Assembly (NCBI GenBank): GCA_041299705.1 | Contig: JBGLNM010000001.1 | Span: 3,814-67,813 of the forward strand | Reading direction: 5' to 3' | DNA from: Desulfobacterales bacterium | Lineage (GTDB): Bacteria; Desulfobacterota; Desulfobacteria; Desulfobacterales; JBGLNM01 | Length of the DNA stretch: 64,000 bases | Shown: piece after piece, positions 6,986 to 64,000 of the stretch | Layout of the letters: each line of letters starts with the position of its first letter | Numbering within the stretch: the first letter of the stretch is position 1 | Position numbers and translations under genes: made by a program | The notes under the pieces: model-generated | Told to the model about the DNA's origin: nothing | Database searches by the model: none | The model's input: the letters and a program-made list of their open reading frames with translations, nothing else

Positions 6986-7002
6986 GTGTGCTCTTCCGAT
7001 CT
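6986..7002 (+). other. Illumina TruSeq adapter remnant (GTGTGCTCTTCCGATCT)
   Basis: Exact 17-nt match to the 3' end of the read-2 adapter. It lies 1 nt from the hom start codon and 4 nt from the cbbQ-like stop codon. Confidence 0.9.
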
Positions 7003-7006
7003 CCCA

Positions 7007-7852
7007 TCAGAAAATCCCGGCCACGATTTCGGCGATGGCCGTCTGCATCTCCGCGTCGTCGGACATGGCCCGGATCACCGCCACATCGCAGGCCACCGCC
7101 GGCTTGACGCCGCTTTCCATCAGTTTGGCGGCATAGACCAGCAGCCGGGTGCTGATGCCCTCTTCCAGCCCGTGCTGGCGGAGGTTGCGGACCATCTCCC
7201 CCAGGCGCACCAGGCGTTCGGCCAGTGATGGGTCCACCCCGCTTTCCCTGACGATGATCGCCAGCTCCTTTTCGGCCGACGGATAGGTGAAATCCAGGGC
7301 CACGAAACGCTGGCGCGTCGAGTGCTTGAGGTCTTTCATGACGCTCTGATAGCCGGGGTTGTAGGAGATCACGAGGTGGAAATCCGGGTGACACTCCAGC
7401 AGAAGGCCGCGTTTCTCCTGGGGCAGGATGCGGCGGTCGTCGGTCAGCGGGTGTATCACCACGGTGGTGTCCTTGCGCGCTTCCACGACCTCGTCCAGGT
7501 AACAGATGGCCCCGTGTCTGACCGCCAGGCTCAGGGGGCCGTCCTGCCAGACTGTTTCGTCCCCCTTGAGGAGGTAGCGGCCCACGAGGTCGGAGGCCGT
7601 CAGGTCCTCGTGGCAGGCGATGGTCACCAGCGGCCGGCCGATCCGCCAGGCCATGTGCTCCAGGAAACGCGTCTTCCCGCAGCCGGTGGGCCCCTTGAGC
7701 ATCACGGGCAGCTTCAGGCGGTAGGCGAACTCGAACACCTCGATCTCTTCGCCGGTGGGCAGGTAGTGGGGTTCGGCGGCGATGCGGTAATTTTCGATGG
7801 CCACGCCGTTGGGCGCTTTGAGGCCGTCGGGCCCGTCTCCAGGGTGGTGCAT
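7007..7852 (-). CDS. CbbQ/NirQ/NorQ-family AAA+ (MoxR-like) ATPase
   Basis: 281 aa. Walker A GPTGCGKT, Walker B ICYLDEV, and a CbbQ-type C-terminal region. Confidence 0.88.
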
Positions 7853-7954
7853 GTGCGGCTCCTTGCAATGGTTGCGCTCATCCCGAACAGCCCGCGGGCC
7901 GGAAAGCGGTCTGCCGGCCCGCGGGTGTGCGCCGGGTGAACCCGGAGGATTTCC

Positions 7955-8995
7955 TTAGTACTTGCCGTAAAGCTCGGCCGCTTCCATCATGGCGATGGCG
8001 TTCATCAGCGACCCGTTGGGCGGGAACTCGCACCCGGTGGCCAGGATGAACCGCCCGCCCGCGGCCAGTTCCCCGATCTCCTTCTTGCACTCCTGCTTCA
8101 TCTCCTCGGGGCTCCCCAGGAAGGCGTACTGCGCCGGGCTGGTGTAGCCGATGATCGTCACCTTGTCGCCCCACTTCTTCTTGGTCTCCACCCAGTCGGC
8201 GCAGTCATCCGGCGGGTAGGCGCAGGAGATGGCGATGGGGTCCATGGTCTCGATCTGGGCGTCGAAATAGAGGCCGTTGCCGCAGTTGTGCACGATGACC
8301 ATCATGCCGTTGGCGCGCGTGGCCTCGGCCAGCTCCTTGGCGAAGGGGCCTTCGATTTCCCGCCACATCTCCTTGCGCATGATGGTCTGGGAGGCGAACA
8401 GGGTGTCCAGGACGATGGCGTGGCAGCCGGTCTTGGCGATGGCCTTGATGTAGTCCACCAGCACCCCGTTGATGACCTTCTGCGCGTGGATGACCGCTTC
8501 CTTGTGCTTGTAGCAGTCCCGGAAGAGGTTTTCGGCCCCGCGCATCATGGACAGGATCCCCAGGGGGCCGTAGACGAACCCCATGATGGCGGTGGTGGCC
8601 GCCTTCTCGTTGCAGACGATGTCGTAGTATTTCAGGGACTCCTTCATCCGCGGCCCCTTGGTGGGGTCCAGCGGCTGGATCTTGTAGTAGTCGTCCGGTG
8701 TCCGGATGAAGGGGTCGTCGTAGTCGGGGTGGGCCGTGTCCTCGATGGGAAACACCATCTTCTGCCCGAAATCGGCGGCTTCCACCGACAGGTCCACCAG
8801 CCCCAGGATGCCGTCGTAGCCGATGAGGTTGTGGGCCTGGATCTGGGATTTGGCCATCAGCTCCCCGTCCCGCGACCATTCCTCGTAGGTCACCCCGTAC
8901 ACCCTCCGGGAAGCGCCGCAGACCAGCGGGCCCGCGGGCACCCGGTCCGGGATGCCGCCTTGCAAAACCGTCGCCACTCTTTCCAATCCGTTCAT
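7955..8995 (-). CDS. Uroporphyrinogen-decarboxylase-family protein, MtaA/MT2-methyltransferase-like
   Basis: URO-D fold over the full length. HxC...C pattern (IVHNCGN ... ATGCEFP). I prefer the ATG at 8995 (RBS AAAGGAGA) over the ORF-track start at 9019. Confidence 0.8.
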   Translation of the reverse strand: MNGLERVATVLQGGIPDRVPAGPLVCGASRRVYGVTYEEWSRDGELMAKSQIQAHNLIGYDGILGLVDLSVEAADFGQKMVFPIEDTAHPDYDDPFIRTPDDYYKIQPLDPTKGPRMKESLKYYDIVCNEKAATTAIMGFVYGPLGILSMMRGAENLFRDCYKHKEAVIHAQKVINGVLVDYIKAIAKTGCHAIVLDTLFASQTIMRKEMWREIEGPFAKELAEATRANGMMVIVHNCGNGLYFDAQIETMDPIAISCAYPPDDCADWVETKKKWGDKVTIIGYTSPAQYAFLGSPEEMKQECKKEIGELAAGGRFILATGCEFPPNGSLMNAIAMMEAAELYGKY

Positions 8996-9080
8996 CTGAT
9001 GTCTCCTTTGGTTGGGCATGCCCTGCCGGGCACGCCGATGGACGTGAACACCCCTGTTCGGGCGGGAACCCTTGGGGGCC

Positions 9081-9671
9081 TCAGGTGATGAGGGCCGCCA
9101 ACCGGTCCACCCCGGCTCCGTTGACAGCGCTCAACCGGAAGACCTCGGGGTGCAGCGTCCCCAGGGTCTCCCGGACACGGGCTTCCATTTCGGCATCGAC
9201 CCGGTCGGCCCGGCCGATGCCCACCACGTCGGCCCCCCGGACCTGCCCCGTGATGAGGCGGCCGCGCTCGGCCCACAGAAAATCGAAGTGCGGGCCGTCC
9301 ACCAGGGTGACCAGCGGGCCGATCTCGTAGGAAACGTCCCGCCGGCCCATGGCGCACACCTGGCGCATTTCGGCGGTGACCACCATCTCCGACGGCTCGA
9401 CAAAGAGTACGTCCGGGGCGTGGCGCCGCCTGATCGTTTTGATCCGGTCCACCAGACTGGTCGCCAGTGAACAACCGACTCAGCCCCCCCGCAGGTACTG
9501 GATCGGCACCTCCCCCCCGGCAACACCCGGGATCTCGTCGTAGGTCGCCTTCCCCTGCTCGTTGACGATCACCGCGCAGCGCCTCCCCGCGGCCGACAAC
9601 CGGGTCACCAGCCGGCCGATGAGGGTCGTCTTGCCGCTGCCGCGGGTGCCGGACACGCTGACCAGGCGCAC
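9081..9671 (-). CDS. CobW/COG0523-like G3E P-loop GTPase with an in-frame UGA (putative selenocysteine) at 9480-9482
   Basis: GTG at 9671 preceded by GGAGGAGG. P-loop GTRGSGKTT. The two ORF-track pieces (9480..10037 and 9081..9452) share one frame. The TGA aligns with the first Cys of CICC in the paralogue at 10194-10808. Confidence 0.7.
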
Positions 9672-9673
9672 CT

Positions 9674-10189
9674 CTAGTCCTCCTCCCGGAAATCTTCCTC
9701 CTGCAGCTGGGCCTGGAGCTGCTTGAGGTAGTCCTGCTTGGAGGCGACGAAGTCGAACTCGTCGAAATAGGTGTGCTCTTTCTCCTTGACCACCGAAAGG
9801 CCGAGGTTCTGGGCCACTTCGTGGAGGCCTTCGAGGGTGGCCGCCTTGACGGCATGCTCCGGGATGCCCTGGACGATGCTGTTGACCGCGATGGTGACGT
9901 CCCGGACCGGGTGGCTCACGTGGCCGGTCGAAAACACGCCGTGGGCCGTTCCGATGGTGTCGGCCTTGAGGGTCCCGGCCGGGGTGTTGAGGTGCGACTT
10001 GATGTGGCCGATGCAGCGTGCGCCCAGTTCCATGCATTTTTGGGCGATGGCCGTCATCATGTTTTCGGCCATGGTCTTGAGAAACGCCTCGTTCATGGCC
10101 TCTTTGCGGCTCAGCTTGGCGGCCACGCCGTACCCGCTGACGCCGTGCTCGGTGTAACAGCCGACTTGCCGGCCGGTGTCCCCTGCCAT
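9674..10189 (-). CDS. Hypothetical 171-aa protein with His-rich stretches, sandwiched between the two G3E GTPase genes
   Basis: Clean ORF with normal composition. Contains GHIKSH, TAHG and TGHVSHP segments and an acidic C-terminus. I recognise no family. Confidence 0.6.
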   Translation of the reverse strand: MAGDTGRQVGCYTEHGVSGYGVAAKLSRKEAMNEAFLKTMAENMMTAIAQKCMELGARCIGHIKSHLNTPAGTLKADTIGTAHGVFSTGHVSHPVRDVTIAVNSIVQGIPEHAVKAATLEGLHEVAQNLGLSVVKEKEHTYFDEFDFVASKQDYLKQLQAQLQEEDFREED

Positions 10190-10193
10190 CGGG

Positions 10194-10808
10194 CTATCCC
10201 TCCCATGCCTGGATCATTTCCACCAGGCGGTCGATGCCGATGTCCGCGAAGGTGGACAGGTTCACGATTTCCGCGACGGCGTTGTACTGCCTCACCCTGG
10301 ATGCCGACTCGGCGACCGCGTTTTCGTCCACGGCGTCGATCTTGCTGATAGCGATGATGTCGGCATCCTTGACCTGGGTGGTCACCAGCTGCCCCAGCAT
10401 GTCCATGTCCAGCAGCTCCGCCGGGCGGGTGGCGTCGAAGAGCACGACGGCCGGGCCGAGGGTGAGCTTGGCATCCCGGCCGCCCATGCGCGCGGCAAGC
10501 TTGACCTGGTGCGGAACGGCCACCCCGGTCGGCTCCACCAGGACGTGATCCGGCGAGAAGTCCTTGTAGAGGCGGTAGATCGTCTTTGCGAAGGTCGCCG
10601 CCACCTCGCAGCAGATGCAGCCGCCGCCGATGTCCTTGACCAGAAGGCCGCTTTCCTCGATGACCTTGCCGTCGACGGGGATTTCCCCGATCTCGTTGAC
10701 CACCAGAGCCACCTTCTGCCGGCCGCCCCCGGCCAGGCGGCGCGACAGCTGCAGCAGGAGGGTCGTCTTGCCGCAGCCGAGGAAACCGGCGATTTGGGTG
10801 ATTTTCAT
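10194..10808 (-). CDS. CobW/COG0523-like G3E P-loop GTPase (short form, no CobW_C domain)
   Basis: ATG at 10808 with RBS GGAGGAG. P-loop GFLGCGKTT. GGGCICCE metal motif. 204 aa. Confidence 0.85.
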   Translation of the reverse strand: MKITQIAGFLGCGKTTLLLQLSRRLAGGGRQKVALVVNEIGEIPVDGKVIEESGLLVKDIGGGCICCEVAATFAKTIYRLYKDFSPDHVLVEPTGVAVPHQVKLAARMGGRDAKLTLGPAVVLFDATRPAELLDMDMLGQLVTTQVKDADIIAISKIDAVDENAVAESASRVRQYNAVAEIVNLSTFADIGIDRLVEMIQAWEG

Positions 10809-10894
10809 TTCTCCTCCAGGTAGGGTGCCTTGCGGCGGCGCTTCCCGCAACGGCCGCAGGGTCTCATGCCGGCCGCGGGATGTAAATGCAGGCT

Positions 10895-10929
10895 TTCGGG
10901 TATTTAGCGGGTATGCGGGCATACCCGAA
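10895..10929. promoter_or_regulatory. Nested palindrome, candidate operator upstream of the G3E operon
   Basis: TTCGGGTAT-TTAGC-GGGTATGC-GG-GCATACCCGAA. It lies about 90-120 nt upstream of the start at 10808. Confidence 0.3.
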
Positions 10930-10983
10930 TAGGCGCAGAGAAAGGAGAAGCAAAAACAGCCGTTGCCGTCAATGCCGGCTCGA

Positions 10984-11033
10984 TCGTTGTCGTGGTCGTA
11001 ATCGTTGTCGTAATCGGTATCCTGATCCTGGAT
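10984..11033. repeat. Period-6 tract (GTTGTC/GTAATC type)
   Basis: tcgttgtcgtggtcgtaatcgttgtcgtaatcggtatcctgatcctgg. It is the reverse complement of the tract type at 11213-11288. Confidence 0.7.
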
Positions 11034-11212
11034 GTCCGCGCACCCGTCACCCCCCACGCCGCCCGTCATCGGCCTGATTGCGCTCCCAGACACCCCGGAC
11101 GCACAAAACAAGGCGCAACCCTCCCTGCTCGTTCCCGACTGCAGGGGGCCGCTCCCTTTCTCCCGAGGAAGACTGGGGATCGGTCAGCGACATCAATTTA
11201 TTTGATGGATAG

Positions 11213-11288
11213 GATTACGACTACGATTACGATTACGATTACGATTACGACAACGAGAACGACAACGAGAACGACAACGACATCGATG
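11213..11288. repeat. Period-6 tract (GATTAC/GACAAC/GAGAAC type)
   Basis: gattacgactacgattacgattacgattacgattacgacaacgagaacgacaacgagaacgacaacgacatcgatgg. Confidence 0.8.
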
Positions 11289-11299
11289 GAGGCAGGGAT

Positions 11300-12094
11300 T
11301 CAGATGGAAAAATGGCCGCGCACCCGGTCGAAGAGCCTGTCGACCCGGGAGGCAAAGGGCAGGTCGCCGTCCGCGAGGGCCTGCCGGGCCACCTGCCCCA
11401 GAAGCGCGCGGTCGTGAGGGAGAAGGTAGGGGTGGCAGCGGTCCCAGAAGGAGACCAACTCGGGCGAGAGGCCCGACTGCTGCAGCAGGTGGAGCGGGAG
11501 GAAGGCTTCACACTTCTGGCACAGGTAAAGCCCCCGCACCCAGTCGTGCGGCTGCAGGCGGTCGTAGTCCTGCGCGTCGCCGAGTGTTCTTTCCAGCTGG
11601 TGAAAGTGGTAGACCACCTGGGGCCCGCCCCGCCCCAGGTCGAGGATCATCCGCGTCGCCGCCTGGAGCTGAAGCGCTTTTTCCAGGTGCCAGACCATCT
11701 GGCGCACAACGGCGATGGCGGACCCGCTGAGGTTGAGGGAGGACTGGATCTTCCTTCGGAAGTTGAAGGCGAAGGCGTCGCCGCGAAGATCCAGGCTGAA
11801 GAGGGCCAGTTCCAGGTCCACGGCGGCCTGCAGGGCGGCCGGGGGGGCATCGGCGAGGCCATCGGCGCAGACGTGAAGCACCAGGCCGCTGTTTTGCCTG
11901 CGGCCGAAAAGGAGGCAGGCGGGGCGCCGTTCCGGGCGGGGGTCGGGGAAGCCGTCCCGGGAATGGAAGCGCAGCTTCACAACGGTGCCGAGGGACGGGT
12001 CGACCTCCTCGAAAAAGGAGGCGATCCACGCGGCGCAATTTTTCGCAAGGGCGGTTTCGGCCGCCTGGTCGTTTCGAGGGTCGGCTGGGGGCAT
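11300..12094 (-). CDS. Hypothetical protein (264 aa from the ATG at 12094). The 5' end may be truncated.
   Basis: This is the C-terminal third of the 735-aa ORF-track entry. It has normal composition (..QMVWHLEKALQLQAATRMILDL..LYLCQKCEAFLPLHLL..), whereas the upstream part is antisense to resB. No family recognised. Confidence 0.5.
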   Translation of the reverse strand: MPPADPRNDQAAETALAKNCAAWIASFFEEVDPSLGTVVKLRFHSRDGFPDPRPERRPACLLFGRRQNSGLVLHVCADGLADAPPAALQAAVDLELALFSLDLRGDAFAFNFRRKIQSSLNLSGSAIAVVRQMVWHLEKALQLQAATRMILDLGRGGPQVVYHFHQLERTLGDAQDYDRLQPHDWVRGLYLCQKCEAFLPLHLLQQSGLSPELVSFWDRCHPYLLPHDRALLGQVARQALADGDLPFASRVDRLFDRVRGHFSI

Positions 12095-13447
12095 GTCATC
12101 CGTGAGGGACTTGGTGACAGGGCTCGCGGCGGGTCCTCCGTCAGGCTGACCGTCGTCCTGCTCCTCGGCCTGGCGCTGACGTCGATGATCGGGACCCTGA
12201 TCCCCCAGAACCAGTCCCCGGCGGAATATGTCCGCGCCTATGGGGAATTCCTCTATCGCCTGTTCTCCGTCCTCAACGTGTTCGACATGTACCATTCCTG
12301 GTGGTTCCGCTTCCTGATGATCCTGCTGGCCACCAACATCATCGTCTGCTCCGTCGAGCGCCTCTCGGCCACCTGGCGGGTCATCTTCCCCGCGGCGCCG
12401 AAGTTTTCCGCCGCCCGCTTCCGCAAGCCGGCCGGCGGGCCCGGCTGGGAGGACAACCGCCCTCCCGATGAGCTCGCCGACCTGTGCCGACCGGTCGTCG
12501 CCGGCCATTTCGGCACCGTGCGCGTGGAGCCCTGCGGCCGCGGCGCGTGCATTTTCGGGGAGCGGCGACGGTGGTCGCGGATCGGCGTCTACGTGGTCCA
12601 CTTCAGCGTGGTGCTGCTTCTGGCGGGGGGCCTGATCGGCTCCTTTTTCGGGTACGAGGGTTTCGTCAACATCCCGGAGGGCGAGGCCCGGGACCGGGTC
12701 TTCCTGCGCAACAGCCGCCAGTCGATCCAGCTCGGCTTCCAGATCCGCTGCGACGATTTCGACGTCAGCTTCTACGAGGGCGGGGCCCCGAAGGAGTACC
12801 GCTCCCGCCTGACCATCCTCGAGGCGGGCGGGCCGATACTGCAGAAGGATATCATCGTCAACGACCCCCTTTCCCACCGGGGCGTCCGCATCTACCAGTC
12901 CAGCTACGGCACCCTGCCGGGAAACGAATTCGTCCTGAGCCTGACCAGCCGCGAAACCGGGATGATTTACACCCAGCCGGCGGTCCTCGGCCAGAAGGTC
13001 GTCATCCCGGAGAATCTGGGCACCCTGGTGATCGAGGAATACCGCGAAGAGGCCCAGTTCCAGGGCCACGCCGTCGGAGAGGCCTTTGTCGGGACCCTGA
13101 CCCCCGGCGGCGCCGAACCGGTGCCCATCATCCTGCCCCTGCGCTTCCCCGGCTTCGACCAGATGCGCAAGGGCGAAGTGGTCGTCGCCGTCGCCGAGTA
13201 CACGCCCCGCTATTACACCGGCCTCCAGGTGGCGCGGGATCCGGGGGTGTGGGTGGTTTACGCCGGATTCGTCCTCATGATCCTGGGGTGCGTGATCACC
13301 TTCTTCATGCCCCACCAGCAGGTCTGCGTCGAGCTGGCGCCCGCCGGCTCCGGCAGCCGGGTCCGGGTGACCGGCAGGGCGCCCAAAGGCCAGGTGGCGA
13401 TGGACCTTAAAATTCAACGCATTGCGGAAAAGCTCCGCAGGCTCTGA
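12093..13447 (+). CDS. resB: ResB/Ccs1 cytochrome c biogenesis protein (system II). N-terminus unresolved: 1-nt frameshift or 5' truncation.
   Basis: SSVRLTVVLLLGLALTSMIGTLIPQ onward is typical ResB. No in-frame ATG, GTG or TTG lies close upstream. The ATG at 12093 is in another frame that stops after 18 codons. Confidence 0.75.
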
Positions 13448-61061: not shown

Positions 61062-62441
61062 ATGGAACCCGATACCACCGAAAGCCTCTGCCCGGTTTGT
61101 CTGAACCGCATCGGTGCGGAACGGGTCGCCTGCGGCGAACAGGTGCAACTGGTCAAAACCTGCCCCGAGCACGGGGAATTCAGGACGGTCATCTGGAACG
61201 GCCGCCCGAGCCTGGGGGAATGGCAGCGCCCCAAAACACCGGTGCTTCTTCGCCCCTTCCTCCAGGAGACGCTGCGGGGCTGTCCCTTTGACTGCGGGCT
61301 CTGCCGTGAGCACCGGCAGCGCTCCTGCACCGTGCTGCTGGAGGTGACCCGCCGCTGTAACCTGCACTGCGCCGTGTGCTTTGCCGGGTCTCATCCGGGG
61401 GACGCGGTCGATCCCAGCCTGGCGGAAATCCGCGGCTGGTACCAAAGGGCACTGAGCATGGCCTCCGGCAGCAACATTCAGCTCTCCGGCGGTGAACCCA
61501 CCGTGCGGGATGACTTGCCTGAGATCGTTGCCGCCGGCCGCAAGATCGGCTTCGGCTTCATTCAACTGAACACCAACGGCATTCGGCTGGCAACCGACAC
61601 CGGATACATGAAGGCCCTCAAGGACGCCGGCCTTGCCAGCGTCTTCCTGCAGTTCGACGGCATTGACGACGCGGTGCACCTGAAACTGCGTGGACGGGGA
61701 TTGGCGGACGTGAAACGCCGCGCGATCGATGCCTGCGCCGGCCACGGCGTCGGGGTCGTGCTGGTGCCCACGTTGGTCCCCGGAGTGAATACCCACCAGA
61801 TCGGGAGCCTGCTGCAGTCGGCCATCGGCCTCTCCCCGGCCGTGCGGGGTGTGCACTTCCAGCCCGTCAGCTATTTCGGCCGCTACCCGCAGCCGATAAA
61901 CGGCGCCTCCCGGATCACGCTGCCGGAACTGATGGCCGCAATCGAACACCAGTCCGCCGGGATGTTCAAGGCGGCGGACTTCCGGCCGCCCGGCTGCGAA
62001 AACGCCTGGTGCTCGTTTCACGCCGATTATATCATCCTGCCGGGCGGCACGGCCCGGCGGTTGCAGGCGTCGAGCCCTTTGTCGGGATGCTGCACGCCGA
62101 TTCCGGCCGAGGAAGGCGCGCTGCGCACCATGGCGCACGTTTCCCGGCAGTGGGCGGGGCCGAACAGCGGAACAGCAGCCCCTGGCCCGCCCACGGCCGG
62201 CGACCCCGGTTGCGTTTCGGATTCACCCAGCGGCGGGCCGATGCGGCTGGACGATTTCCTCGACCGGGCGCGTTCCCACACGTTCACGGTCTCTGCCATG
62301 GCCTTCCAGGACGCCTGGACCATTGACCTGGAGCGGCTGCGCGACTGCTGCATCCATGTGCTGGATCCGCGCCGCGGCCTGGTTCCGTTTTGCGCCTACA
62401 ACGTCACCGCCGTCGATGGGAGGGCCTTGTACCGGCAATGA
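61062..62441 (+). CDS. Radical SAM protein with an N-terminal zinc-ribbon-like CxxC...CPEHG region
   Basis: ATG at 61062. CPVCLNRI..CPEHGEF. CxxxCxxC (RRCNLHCAVCF). QLSGGEPT. 459 aa. Confidence 0.8.
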   Translation: MEPDTTESLCPVCLNRIGAERVACGEQVQLVKTCPEHGEFRTVIWNGRPSLGEWQRPKTPVLLRPFLQETLRGCPFDCGLCREHRQRSCTVLLEVTRRCNLHCAVCFAGSHPGDAVDPSLAEIRGWYQRALSMASGSNIQLSGGEPTVRDDLPEIVAAGRKIGFGFIQLNTNGIRLATDTGYMKALKDAGLASVFLQFDGIDDAVHLKLRGRGLADVKRRAIDACAGHGVGVVLVPTLVPGVNTHQIGSLLQSAIGLSPAVRGVHFQPVSYFGRYPQPINGASRITLPELMAAIEHQSAGMFKAADFRPPGCENAWCSFHADYIILPGGTARRLQASSPLSGCCTPIPAEEGALRTMAHVSRQWAGPNSGTAAPGPPTAGDPGCVSDSPSGGPMRLDDFLDRARSHTFTVSAMAFQDAWTIDLERLRDCCIHVLDPRRGLVPFCAYNVTAVDGRALYRQ

Positions 62442-63626
62442 ATGCACTGCGCATCACCCCCCTGGATCGCTGGATCAGAAGCCGAATCGGCCTCGATCCG
62501 GGAGACTGCTTCACGCGCGAGGACGTGAGGCGCCATCAGCTGGGAAAACTTCGGGAAAGCCTATCGTATGCATCCCGGCACAGTCCGTTCTATCGCCGAC
62601 AGTTTTCCGGGTGCGCCGGTTTTGCCATGGCGGATTTTCAGGGGTTTGCGTCTCTGCCCTTTACAACGGCGGAAGATATCGTACGCGACCCGCTCGAATT
62701 CCTCTGCGTCTCCCAGTCGGACGTGGCGCGGGTGGTTACGATCCGGTCGTCAGGCACCACCGGATTACCGAAGCGGTTTTTTTTCAACGAGGCGGACCTG
62801 GAACTGACCGTCGATTTTTTCCAGCACGGCATGTCCACCCTCGTGCAGGCCGGGCAGCGGGTGCTCATCCTGATGCCCGGCGGGTTGCCGGGCAGCGTGG
62901 GGGATTTGCTCGTCGAGGGACTCGCTCGCATGGGAGCGATAGGCATCGTTCACGGGCCGGTCCAAGACTCCGAGGATGCCATCGATGAGATCCTTGCCCA
63001 TCGGGTCGAATGCTTGGTAGGAATTCCCGTGCAGGTCCTCGCCCTGGTCAGGCACCCCAAAAGCGCCCGCATCCCGCGGGGTTTCATCCGCAGCGTGCTG
63101 CTGAGCACCGATTACGTACCCGCATCCATCGTCGCCGATATTGAACAGACGTGGGGTTGCAGGGTCTATCAGCATTACGGTATGACAGAGATGGGATACG
63201 GCGGCGGGGTCGAGTGCGACGCCCATGACGGCTACCATCTCCGCGAGGCCGACCTGTTCGTGGAGATCGTCGACCCGGCGACCGGCAGGACGCTGCCGGA
63301 CGGCGTTTCCGGCGAGGTGGTCGTCACCACGTTAACCCGCCGCGCCATGCCCCTGATCCGCTACCGCACCGGCGACATGGCCCGGTTTCTGCCCGAGTAT
63401 TGCCCCTGCGGCAGCACCCTGCGCCGCTTGAGCAAGGTGCAGGGCCGGTTGGCGAACGGGGCAACGCTGGGGCCGTTGACCCGGCTTCACATGGCGGCTC
63501 TCGACGAGGCGATTTTCGCCATCCCGGAAATCCTCAATTTCCAGGCGGTGCTGATCCCTGTGAACGGCTTCAGCCGGCTGAGCCTAACGGTCCACTGCGA
63601 CCCCTGCCGGTTTCCGGACACCTTGG
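62438..63626 (+). pseudogene. PaaK-family AMP-dependent ligase, 3' end cut by an adapter remnant
   Basis: ATGA overlap with the radical SAM stop codon. ..IRSSGTTGLPKRFFF.., ..YRTGDMARF.. motifs. Similarity is lost at ~63626. Confidence 0.75.
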
Positions 63627-63644
63627 CGTGTGCTCTTCCGATCT
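63627..63644 (+). other. Illumina TruSeq adapter remnant (CGTGTGCTCTTCCGATCT)
   Basis: Exact 18-nt match to the read-2 adapter 3' end, at the ligase/nifS-like boundary. Confidence 0.9.
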
Positions 63645-63645
63645 C

Positions 63646-64000
63646 ACCGGCGTGGCCGGCCTCTACATCCGCCGCGGCTCCCTGGTCTGGCCCCTGGTCG
63701 ACGGCGGCGTCCAGGAGCACAACAAGCGCGCCGGAACCGAAAACCTGACGGGCATCATCGGCATGGGCGTGGCCGCCGACCTGGCGCGCCGCGACCTGGA
63801 AAAGCGCCTGGGGCACCTCGAGAGGCTCAAGGCCCAGCTCCTCGCCGACCTGCCGCGCCACGTCGACGAGTACATCGTCAACACCCCGCAGGGCCCCAGC
63901 CTGCCCAACCTGGTGTCGGTCTCCATCAAGTACATCGAGGGCGAGAGCGTCATGCTGATGCTCGACGACGAGGGCATCGCCGTGGCGACCCGCTCGGCCT
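63646..64000 (+). CDS. Internal part of a NifS/IscS-type cysteine desulfurase gene (5' cut at the adapter, 3' runs off the window)
   Basis: ..GVAGLYIRRGSLVWPLVDGGVQEHNKRAGTENLTGIIGMGVAA...IEGESVMLMLDDEGIAVATRSA has class V aminotransferase / NifS motifs (RAGTEN). Confidence 0.8.

Follow-up and report, generated by a model that had tools for sequence, protein, structure and literature searches.

A conserved gene cluster of Desulfobacterota encoding a predicted split COG0523 chaperone, a MoxR/VWA pair and an MtaA-like methyltransferase

The DNA analyzed here is a stretch of 64,000 nt from a Desulfobacterales bacterium (contig JBGLNM010000001.1), referred to as “the window”, a term that always means the whole stretch; on its minus strand lies a block (7003–12134) coding for two GTPases of the COG0523 type, the proteins encoded next to them and a MoxR ATPase. 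The first GTPase, G3E1 (10194–10808, 204 amino acids (aa)), is a short COG0523-type G-domain lacking a C-terminal domain (CTD) and carries the motif GGGCICCE; it is followed by an open reading frame (ORF) of 171 aa, H171 (9674–10189), which contains the stretches IGHIKSH, TAHG and TGHVSHP, by the second GTPase, G3E2 (9081–9671, 196 aa, GTG start), a CobW-related selenoprotein, by a UroD-like ORF (7955–9019 as listed, 354 aa) with the motifs IVHNCGN and ATGCEFPP and, finally, by a CbbQ/NorQ-type MoxR AAA+ ATPase of 281 aa (7007–7852) composed of AAA_5 and CbbQ_C domains. The gaps separating these five genes are, in order, 4, 2, 85 and 102 nt, and the first four genes, with their close packing, common minus-strand orientation and motifs, are all found where the initial annotation had placed them. 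The UroD-like protein most likely starts at 8995, yielding 346 aa, since its homologues are 346 aa long and an AAGGAG sequence is located 7 nt upstream. From the evidence presented below we conclude that G3E1, H171 and G3E2 constitute a naturally split COG0523 system.

Scanning one genome for each species yielded 48 loci, all belonging to Desulfobacterota and distributed among Desulfobacterales, Desulfobulbales, Desulfobaccales, Desulfomonilaceae, Desulfatiglandales, Syntrophaceae, Desulfarculaceae and Desulfohalobiaceae, among others; locus L027 is that of Desulfospira joergensenii DSM 10085. The order G3E1–H171–G3E2–UroD-like–CbbQ-like is preserved on every contig of sufficient length, so that the conservation of gene neighborhood on which the initial annotation had made its grouping depend is borne out. 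Identity to the window proteins amounts to 69–84% for G3E1 (46 loci), 60–87% for H171, 51–88% for the UroD-like protein, 71–88% for the CbbQ-like ATPase and 37–58% for G3E2, the last range narrowing to 43–58% if the divergent locus L043 is left out. Since the CbbQ-like gene (AAA_5, E 1.5e-32; CbbQ_C, E 4.6e-31) is syntenic in 41 of the 48 loci, being absent mainly at contig ends, it belongs to the unit together with the VWA partner described below, a membership that had originally been left undecided.

Both GTPases match the Pfam cobW family (PF02492), with E-values of 4e-33 for G3E1 and 5e-22 for G3E2. The former has all the expected motifs (P-loop GFLGCGKT, GCICC, EPTG and SKID), its GCICC being kept in 46/46 orthologues; its chain ends straight after the G-domain, without a match to CobW_C, and the missing C-terminal domain apparently comes from the gene that follows, H171. 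As to G3E2, the sequence RGG-U-VGC aligns with GGG-C-ICC of G3E1, selenocysteine (Sec) replacing the first Cys and U-x-G-C being present instead of CxCC, and the protein scores 264.1 bits (cutoff 180) against the NCBIfam model NF041053, “CobW-related selenoprotein”. The Sec codon is an in-frame TGA (9480–9482, minus strand) that is retained in 46 of the 47 orthologues, the remaining one having TGC, with conservation of the downstream frame. Beginning 15 nt past the UGA there is a hairpin resembling a selenocysteine insertion sequence (9447–9465, minus strand), with an 8-bp stem and a 3-nt loop, in which 76% of the cells of the orthologue alignment are paired, as opposed to 32–51% with slid partners, whereas five of its eight pairs display compensatory, mostly synonymous, changes and its covariation score was matched by one of 500 shuffles. 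RNAalifold returned for the post-UGA region a trivial 3-bp helix only, and the proposed hairpin was judged instead by these pair counts. As far as comparative evidence can tell, the in-frame TGA of G3E2 is a real selenocysteine codon, as had been annotated from the start; that it could be a true stop, or the mark of a pseudogene, was rejected in view of the conservation of both the codon and the downstream frame.

G3E2 keeps the P-loop, its switch II reading EPSE[MLI] in 38 of 47 sequences (the Gly being usually Glu) and its G4 motif being [ST]RxD or degenerate with loss of the Lys of NKxD, whereas G3E1 retains both motifs. Judging from these motifs, the contrast is typical of an active/regulatory GTPase pair, and G3E2 may be a regulatory GTPase or a pseudo-GTPase. 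G3E2 also evolves much faster than G3E1.

The 171-aa protein, originally listed as an unknown, was assigned by profile searches to no known unrelated family: no Pfam or NCBIfam family was matched by H171, nor by H171 and 34 relatives in the same scans, and a search of the sequences of solved structures with the H171 alignment gave nothing significant. The family itself is sizable, consisting of hypothetical proteins, with 490 matches by word search and 66 clusters at 50% identity by exhaustive search. Its conserved residues are few: GH[IV]K is present in 48/48 Desulfobacterota copies, K64 is invariant throughout the family, and H62 (at least 90%), G56, A57, G61, N103 and G108 are near-invariant, while H15 falls, in fusion-based alignments, in a column where His is near-invariant (H213 of the fusion protein P0154, see below). 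His accounts for 9 of the 171 residues (5.3%) and family-wide only H62 and H15 are conserved; the view that H171 is a “His-rich” metal store, put forward in the initial annotation, was rejected on these grounds, the protein looking instead like a COG0523 CTD.

The CTD of COG0523 proteins has the topology b1-a1-b2-b3-b4-b5-a2 and acts as a GTPase-activating protein (GAP), also when added in trans, its sole invariant motif being RxKG in strand beta2, which provides an arginine finger and a catalytic Lys (PMC13001444, a 2026 preprint). The AlphaFold2 (AF2) model of H171 (pLDDT 89.8) has this same order of elements (strand 17–32, helix 34–54, strands 59–69, 72–78, 85–91 and 95–107, helix 111–128), plus an extra strand and helix. 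The sequence H62-I-K64-S is located in the predicted beta2 (59–69), an Arg (in the form R-A-K) being found in one distant member only, P0176. The top three Foldseek matches of the model in the PDB are all to E. coli YjiA (E 3e-4, probability 0.99).

Further indications come from gene fusion and gene neighborhood. P0154 (351 aa) is a natural fusion that combines a G-domain with GCICC and an H171-like domain in one protein; the alignment of its model to YjiA is collinear through the whole length of the latter (351 columns, E 2e-12), HypB matching the G-domain part alone. In the AF2 model of P0154 the G-domain is of low confidence (pTM 0.46), so that the model is usable for collinearity with YjiA only and not for packing. 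Furthermore, H171 relatives at 21–35% identity sit, on unrelated contigs, directly downstream of a cobW gene of ~205 aa devoid of CTD, an arrangement that the Desulfobacterota loci share with L051, L054, L058–L062, L065 and L066. Taken together, model, motif and context make H171 best read as a free-standing, GAP-like COG0523 C-terminal domain encoded in trans; since sequence-level tests fail, this assignment is based on the fold, the position of the motif, the fusion and the gene neighborhood. A further relative, P0123 (400 aa), joins an H171-like domain to a PAS-LuxR regulator such as those whose genes lie upstream of the cluster, which suggests that the H171 domain can be a sensor or input module, but the fusion could also have arisen in gene calling.

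The UroD-like protein belongs to the URO-D family (PF01208, E 2e-50). Its score against the MtaA/CmuA model TIGR01463 (100.8 bits, cutoff 235.4) compares with 26.3 bits, far under the cutoff of 303, against hemE (TIGR01464), and a HemE function was rejected on the basis of the latter score. The sole solved relative found by sequence is MtaA (4ay7, E 1e-7), with which VHNCGN and ATGCEFPP of the UroD-like protein align at LHICGN and APGCGIAP, respectively; the HxC...C site is kept, and H-N-C-G and G-C-E-[FY]-P-P are invariant in 44/44 orthologues. Within the UroD superfamily a His-Cys-Cys sphere marks S/Se-methyltransferases, the Cys ligands being replaced in O-demethylases (PMC10418091). Alignment and profile scores thus identify this protein as an MtaA/MT2-like methyltransferase with a predicted His-Cys-Cys metal site and not as HemE, in agreement with the comparison to MT2 enzymes and their zinc site made in the initial annotation, and the public annotation “uroporphyrinogen decarboxylase” is misleading for this gene.

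Clustering of all ORFs in the 48 loci revealed the partners of the five-gene unit. Directly after CbbQ, in 35 loci, there is a gene for a VWA protein of ~766 aa with an intact DxSxS motif (DMSGS in L032), the VWA domain being C-terminal and the N-terminal ~550 residues matching no family; this protein weakly matches CobT_C, and CbbQ weakly matches CobS. DUF2284 is encoded downstream in 28 loci and DUF1638, for which there is a genetic link to B12-dependent methyl transfer (PMC5764234), in 19, mostly downstream and in several cases upstream or on the opposite strand. CbiM is found upstream in 24 loci, as is a CbiQ–CbiO fusion (24 loci), whereas regulators of the PAS-LuxR (or sigma-54) type are upstream or inserted in at least 19 loci and corrinoid proteins occur at various positions in 5 of the 48. 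Among the conserved neighbors of the 48 loci there is no CobN/ChlH-type large subunit, and neither ZnuABC genes nor ribosomal-protein paralogues are nearby. In two loci the extended cluster includes a cobalamin riboswitch of 72–74 bits (L016, 2392–2593; L031, 14167–14377); in L016 the riboswitch is followed by an ORF resembling, by eye, a PduO-type adenosyltransferase, then by CbiM, CbiQO and a regulator plus G3E1.

Some variations on this arrangement deserve mention. DUF2284 also occurs fused to S-adenosylmethionine (SAM)-dependent, ArsM-like methyltransferases, including the selenoprotein forms NF041536 and NF045648 (seen with L058, 1–113, where the gene extends beyond the locus, and in the NCBIfam matches of DUF2284), and these fusions link the DUF2284 of the cluster to soft metal(loid) or selenium chemistry. 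In two loci of Desulfatiglandales type (L035, 10426–14242; L038, 10439–14246) a divergent UroD-like gene (51% identity) is separated from CbbQ by inserted genes for a B12-binding radical SAM protein and a GroEL paralogue of full length, an insertion that hints at dedicated folding or maturation. The metagenome-assembled genome (MAG) to which L038 belongs contains, besides a complete copy of the module, a second and partly degraded one (L044), in which only ~29 residues of G3E1 remain, H171 is truncated by 47 residues at its N-terminus and CbbQ is absent.

Upstream of G3E1 the window encodes on the same strand a protein of 264 aa, c23 (11300–12094), homologues of which, at 30–34% identity, occupy the same position in 11 of the 48 loci (tblastn); the gene is fast-evolving, and a word-based search returned a single relative. 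The homologue from L009, which was scanned in place of the window protein, has no Pfam or NCBIfam match, and c23 belongs to the cluster as an accessory gene specific to certain lineages. Between c23 and G3E1 there is a spacer of 490 nt with hexamer tandem repeats (TCGTTG/TCGTGGTCGTAA and GATTAC/ACGACA, 4–7 copies) at 10984–11016 and 11213–11286; searches of this spacer detected no Rfam family, no sigma-70 promoter and no clear terminator, while for the block as a whole the Rfam scan found no RNA family, the promoter scan was empty and the terminator scan remained at the level of chance.

Outside the 48 loci, the pair consisting of a short cobW gene followed by an H171-like gene, or the two fused into a single protein, recurs in very distant relatives. 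One of these loci (L058) carries in succession URO-D, G3E, H171-like, CbbQ, VWA, a 74-aa ORF, DUF2284, a second URO-D, a corrinoid protein and a RACo activase, the second URO-D being an orthologue of the UroD-like protein of the window (47% identity). L065 encodes URO-D, G3E, an H171-like protein, CbbQ and a VWA-like protein of 880 aa; CbbQ and a long homologue of the VWA partner of Desulfobacterota recur in both loci, a Pfam VWA match being on record for L058 only. In L060, G3E and H171-like genes precede a URO-D gene, and a second URO-D gene lies on the opposite strand; in L057 a fused G3E–H171 protein adjoins URO-D and a corrinoid protein, and in L067 URO-D is accompanied by MtrH-like and B12-binding genes.

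The sequences that flank the block within the window are not its native surroundings. Two contigs of 5.3 kb each from MAGs (L049 and L050) carry an H171 identical to that of the window, and 7003–12134 matches the former at 100% and the latter at 99.98%, with no match elsewhere in the window; the block, described in the initial annotation as apparently intact, is so in a literal sense, being a single contig. L049 and L050 run past the stop of CbbQ into the VWA gene (MGAIEEFIADNPDLL...), which overlaps the CbbQ stop codon. Identity to them ceases at 7003, exactly at a remnant of the Illumina TruSeq adapter, AGATCGGAAGAGCACAC (6986–7002, minus strand), which marks an artificial junction where the block ends downstream; beyond it the window continues into the beginning of a gene for homoserine dehydrogenase. 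A second, identical remnant (AGATCGGAAGAGCACAC[G]) is located at 63627–63644 (minus strand) inside a broken ORF of an AMP-binding enzyme (62390–63748); the adapter core has no match in the 50 loci searched. The upstream edge is at 12134/12135, the base at which L049 diverges from the window and at which a plus-strand ResB-like ORF devoid of a start codon begins exactly at position 1 of the Pfam ResB profile.

The flanks that differ from those of L049 and L050, the adapter remnant at one junction and the ResB gene cut at the other edge indicate that the block is a separate contig, and the two adapter remnants indicate that the window holds adapter-mediated chimeric joins or concatenated contigs, the former being a property of the source assembly to be borne in mind. 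ResB, CcsA and the cytochromes, as well as homoserine dehydrogenase, were accordingly rejected as functional neighbors, being joined to the block by chimeric assembly, and the lack of VWA, DUF2284, DUF1638 and corrinoid genes in the window is an artifact of the contig end. The earlier argument that, with no corrinoid protein, MT1 or activase present, this is not a standard methyltransferase operon rests on that contig end and is not supported; it is countered by the relatives, which have VWA in the identical contigs, DUF2284, DUF1638, CbiMQO, some corrinoid proteins and, in one distant case, RACo.

How could these proteins work together? MoxR/VWA systems are known to insert metals into, or to remodel, a specific client enzyme. 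We consider it an even call that in the present case a split COG0523 chaperone and a MoxR/VWA remodeller metalate or maintain a corrinoid-dependent S/Se-methyltransferase, their probable client. G3E1 and G3E2, possibly as a heterodimer, would bind a soft divalent metal at the Cys/Sec site, most likely Zn(II) in light of the homology of the client to MtaA and MtbA, Co(II) being a possible candidate on account of the linked CbiMQO genes and B12 riboswitches. H171 would then dock in trans and trigger GTP hydrolysis by G3E1, the metal would be passed to the His-Cys-Cys site of the methyltransferase, and the AAA+/VWA pair might hold or open the client by analogy with NorQ/NorD, CoxD/CoxE and CbbQ/CbbO. 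The metalated enzyme would act as a corrinoid-dependent S- or Se-methyltransferase, a role that fits the DUF1638, DUF2284, corrinoid-protein, RACo and B12-riboswitch neighbors found in relatives. A high-affinity Sec chaperone would be sensible in sulfidic cells, in which free Zn and Co are presumably extremely scarce. The original hypothesis of a dedicated chaperone module with two GTPases survives in part: the conserved unit and the metal site speak for it, whereas the His-rich store and the argument from missing partners have fallen. More speculatively, one free GAP domain with a His/Lys finger might serve two G-domains, one catalytic and the other a Sec pseudo-GTPase, and, in sulfidic anaerobes, might together with MoxR/VWA and DUF2284 install or repair the soft-metal thiolate site of corrinoid-dependent S/Se-methyltransferases, a possibility that we regard as less likely than not.

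A number of observations weigh against the interpretation of these genes as a split chaperone with a methyltransferase client. With regard to H171, the Pfam CobW_C model (PF07683) misses the window protein and finds one of 35 family members at E 0.17, hhalign of the family with E. coli YjiA gives a probability of 1%, though the register fits, and the TM-scores of the H171 model to YjiA are low (0.24–0.31); the finger position is occupied by His instead of Arg, so that any GAP activity is putative. G3E2 may have lost GTP hydrolysis, as its degenerate motifs would suggest. The UroD-like protein remains below every NCBIfam MtaA/MtbA cutoff, the equivalogs scoring 84–87 bits versus the required 400–600, most loci have no corrinoid protein within ~8 kb and likewise no activase, and the distant H171/G3E pairs of L051 and L053/L054 have no UroD neighbor. 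CbiMQO (24 loci), B12 riboswitches and DUF1638 speak for cobalt or cobamide no less than for zinc. Finally, the function is deduced from sequences and models.

The same genes could form a cobalt or cobamide machine in which CobW-like GTPases and a CobS/CobT-like AAA+/VWA pair deliver Co(II), imported by CbiMQO, to a tetrapyrrole or corrinoid held on the UroD fold in substitution of CobN or, in a variant of this scheme, supply a partner corrinoid protein with its corrinoid cofactor or exchange that cofactor. The UroD fold does bind tetrapyrroles and corrinoids, and the scheme would account for CbiM and CbiQ–CbiO upstream in 24 loci, for the cobalamin riboswitches of L016 and L031 with the putative adenosyltransferase ORF of the former (recognized by eye only), for the weak CobT_C and CobS matches of the VWA protein and CbbQ, respectively, and for the genetic tie of DUF1638 to B12-dependent methyl transfer. 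However, the His-Cys-Cys site of the UroD-like protein is exactly that found in the thiol methyltransferases, and the protein as a whole comes closest to MtaA; a CobN-like large subunit is lacking among the conserved neighbors, and half of the loci have no CbiMQO, which in L016 possibly forms a separate operon under the B12 riboswitch. Moreover, anaerobes of this kind are expected to insert cobalt early, via CbiK/CbiX. On balance, we deem this scheme unlikely.

Another possibility, which we hold to be improbable, assigns the leading role to the ATPase: like the Rubisco activase CbbQO, CbbQ/VWA would free the methyltransferase of a tight inhibitor, such as metal-bound sulfide or selenide or a dead-end complex with the corrinoid protein, and the split COG0523 system would merely replace the lost metal. 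The CbbQ_C domain and the intact metal-ion-dependent adhesion site (MIDAS) motif of the VWA partner (DMSGS, L032) are in line with such an activity, as are the GroEL paralogue and B12-radical-SAM gene inserted in L035 and L038, and the DUF1638 and RACo neighbors imply a need for reactivation. On the other hand, we know of no inhibitor or damage state of MT2 enzymes, L060 has G3E and H171 with UroD but no CbbQ/VWA, and sequence data do not distinguish this activity from metalation of the methyltransferase by the split chaperone. That the GTPases are general low-zinc COG0523 paralogues beside an unrelated UroD-family gene, or a true uroporphyrinogen decarboxylase of haem synthesis, is highly implausible, for although many COG0523 proteins belong to Zur regulons (PMC2770081), the public annotation reads “uroporphyrinogen decarboxylase” and cytochrome c biogenesis genes adjoin the block in the window, the gene order is fixed in 48 loci and recurs in lineages at 21–35% identity, the vicinity contains neither ZnuABC genes nor ribosomal-protein paralogues, the hemE score is 26 bits against a cutoff of 303 and the ResB/CcsA neighborhood is an assembly artifact.

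Should the more speculative scheme of one GAP domain serving two G-domains hold true, COG0523 would gain a defined client and a natural trans-GAP system, and the methyltransferase might have as substrates methylated compounds of sulfur, selenium or metal(loid)s for which enzymes of anaerobic turnover are not known. COG0523 proteins are present in all kingdoms, very few of their clients are known, and the role of the CTD as a self-acting GAP, capable of acting also in trans, was proposed only in 2026. The cluster offers in this respect a natural split of G-domain and CTD, a strongly implied client of the UroD family with His-Cys-Cys and a Sec at the metal site; it joins COG0523 chaperones and MoxR/VWA remodellers, i.e., maturation systems that have mostly been studied separately, and it draws attention to a highly conserved and regulated, yet uncharacterised, methyltransferase with a link to corrinoids in sulfate reducers from marine and freshwater habitats.

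In comparison with the known COG0523 proteins (YjiA, ZigA, MigC, ZagA, CobW, Nha3 and ZNG1), G3E1 shares the P-loop, CxCC, ExxG and [NS]KxD, the H171 model shares the topology of the CTD and a basic-x-K motif in beta2, and the fused relative P0154 is collinear with YjiA. Here, however, G-domain and CTD are separate genes with two G-domains per CTD, one of the G-domains is a selenoprotein with U-x-G-C and degenerate G3 and G4 motifs, the finger is His and not Arg, and H171 is not seen by the Pfam CobW_C model. The selenoprotein itself is not new: NF041053, of which G3E2 is a member with its UxxC motif, has been catalogued in surveys of the prokaryotic selenoproteome, the passages searched giving no function or context for it and making no mention of G3E1, H171, the UroD-like protein or CbbQ/VWA as partners.

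The closest precedent is COG0523 subfamily 13, which clusters with mtaA, mtaB, mtaC and ramM in Methanosarcina and some clostridia (Haas 2009, PMC2770081) and which lends backing to the initial idea that a COG0523 protein encoded next to a methyltransferase is its dedicated chaperone. In both cases a COG0523 GTPase is found beside genes for a Zn-dependent, corrinoid-linked methyltransferase of MtaA type; the difference is that subfamily 13 is archaeal or from Firmicutes, has no assigned mechanism and has not been reported with a Sec form, a MoxR/VWA pair or DUF2284. With MtaA, MtbA and MtsA (MT2) and with the Mlp S/Se-methyltransferases (type 1 mlp clusters, Kountz & Balskus 2023) the UroD-like protein has in common the UroD TIM-barrel superfamily and a His-Cys-Cys site that aligns to 4ay7, and corrinoid protein and RACo are near its orthologues in some loci. 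Unlike those enzymes, it stays under the MtaA/MtbA cutoffs and in most loci has no adjacent corrinoid protein or activase; the chaperone and AAA+ module attached here is not mentioned for mlp clusters.

The ATPase and its partner resemble the MoxR AAA+/VWA systems NorQ/NorD, CbbQ/CbbO, CoxD/CoxE and CobS/CobT in that AAA_5 with CbbQ_C is followed by a large VWA protein with DxSxS, but the client here would be a methyltransferase of the UroD family. To our knowledge the pairing of MoxR/VWA with a COG0523 system has not been described previously. Class I chelatases of the CobNST type are different in that the CobN/ChlH-type subunit is not among the conserved neighbors of the 48 loci. The literature searches turned up no account of the complete cluster (CobW with UroD/MtaA and CbbQ/VWA). 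Already known are the individual families and the association between COG0523 and corrinoid methyltransferases, established by comparative genomics in 2009; what is new is the H171 family as a putative free-standing CTD, the presence of two G-domains of which one contains Sec, their fixed association with a MoxR/VWA pair and DUF2284, and the broad distribution of this conserved ensemble among sulfate reducers.

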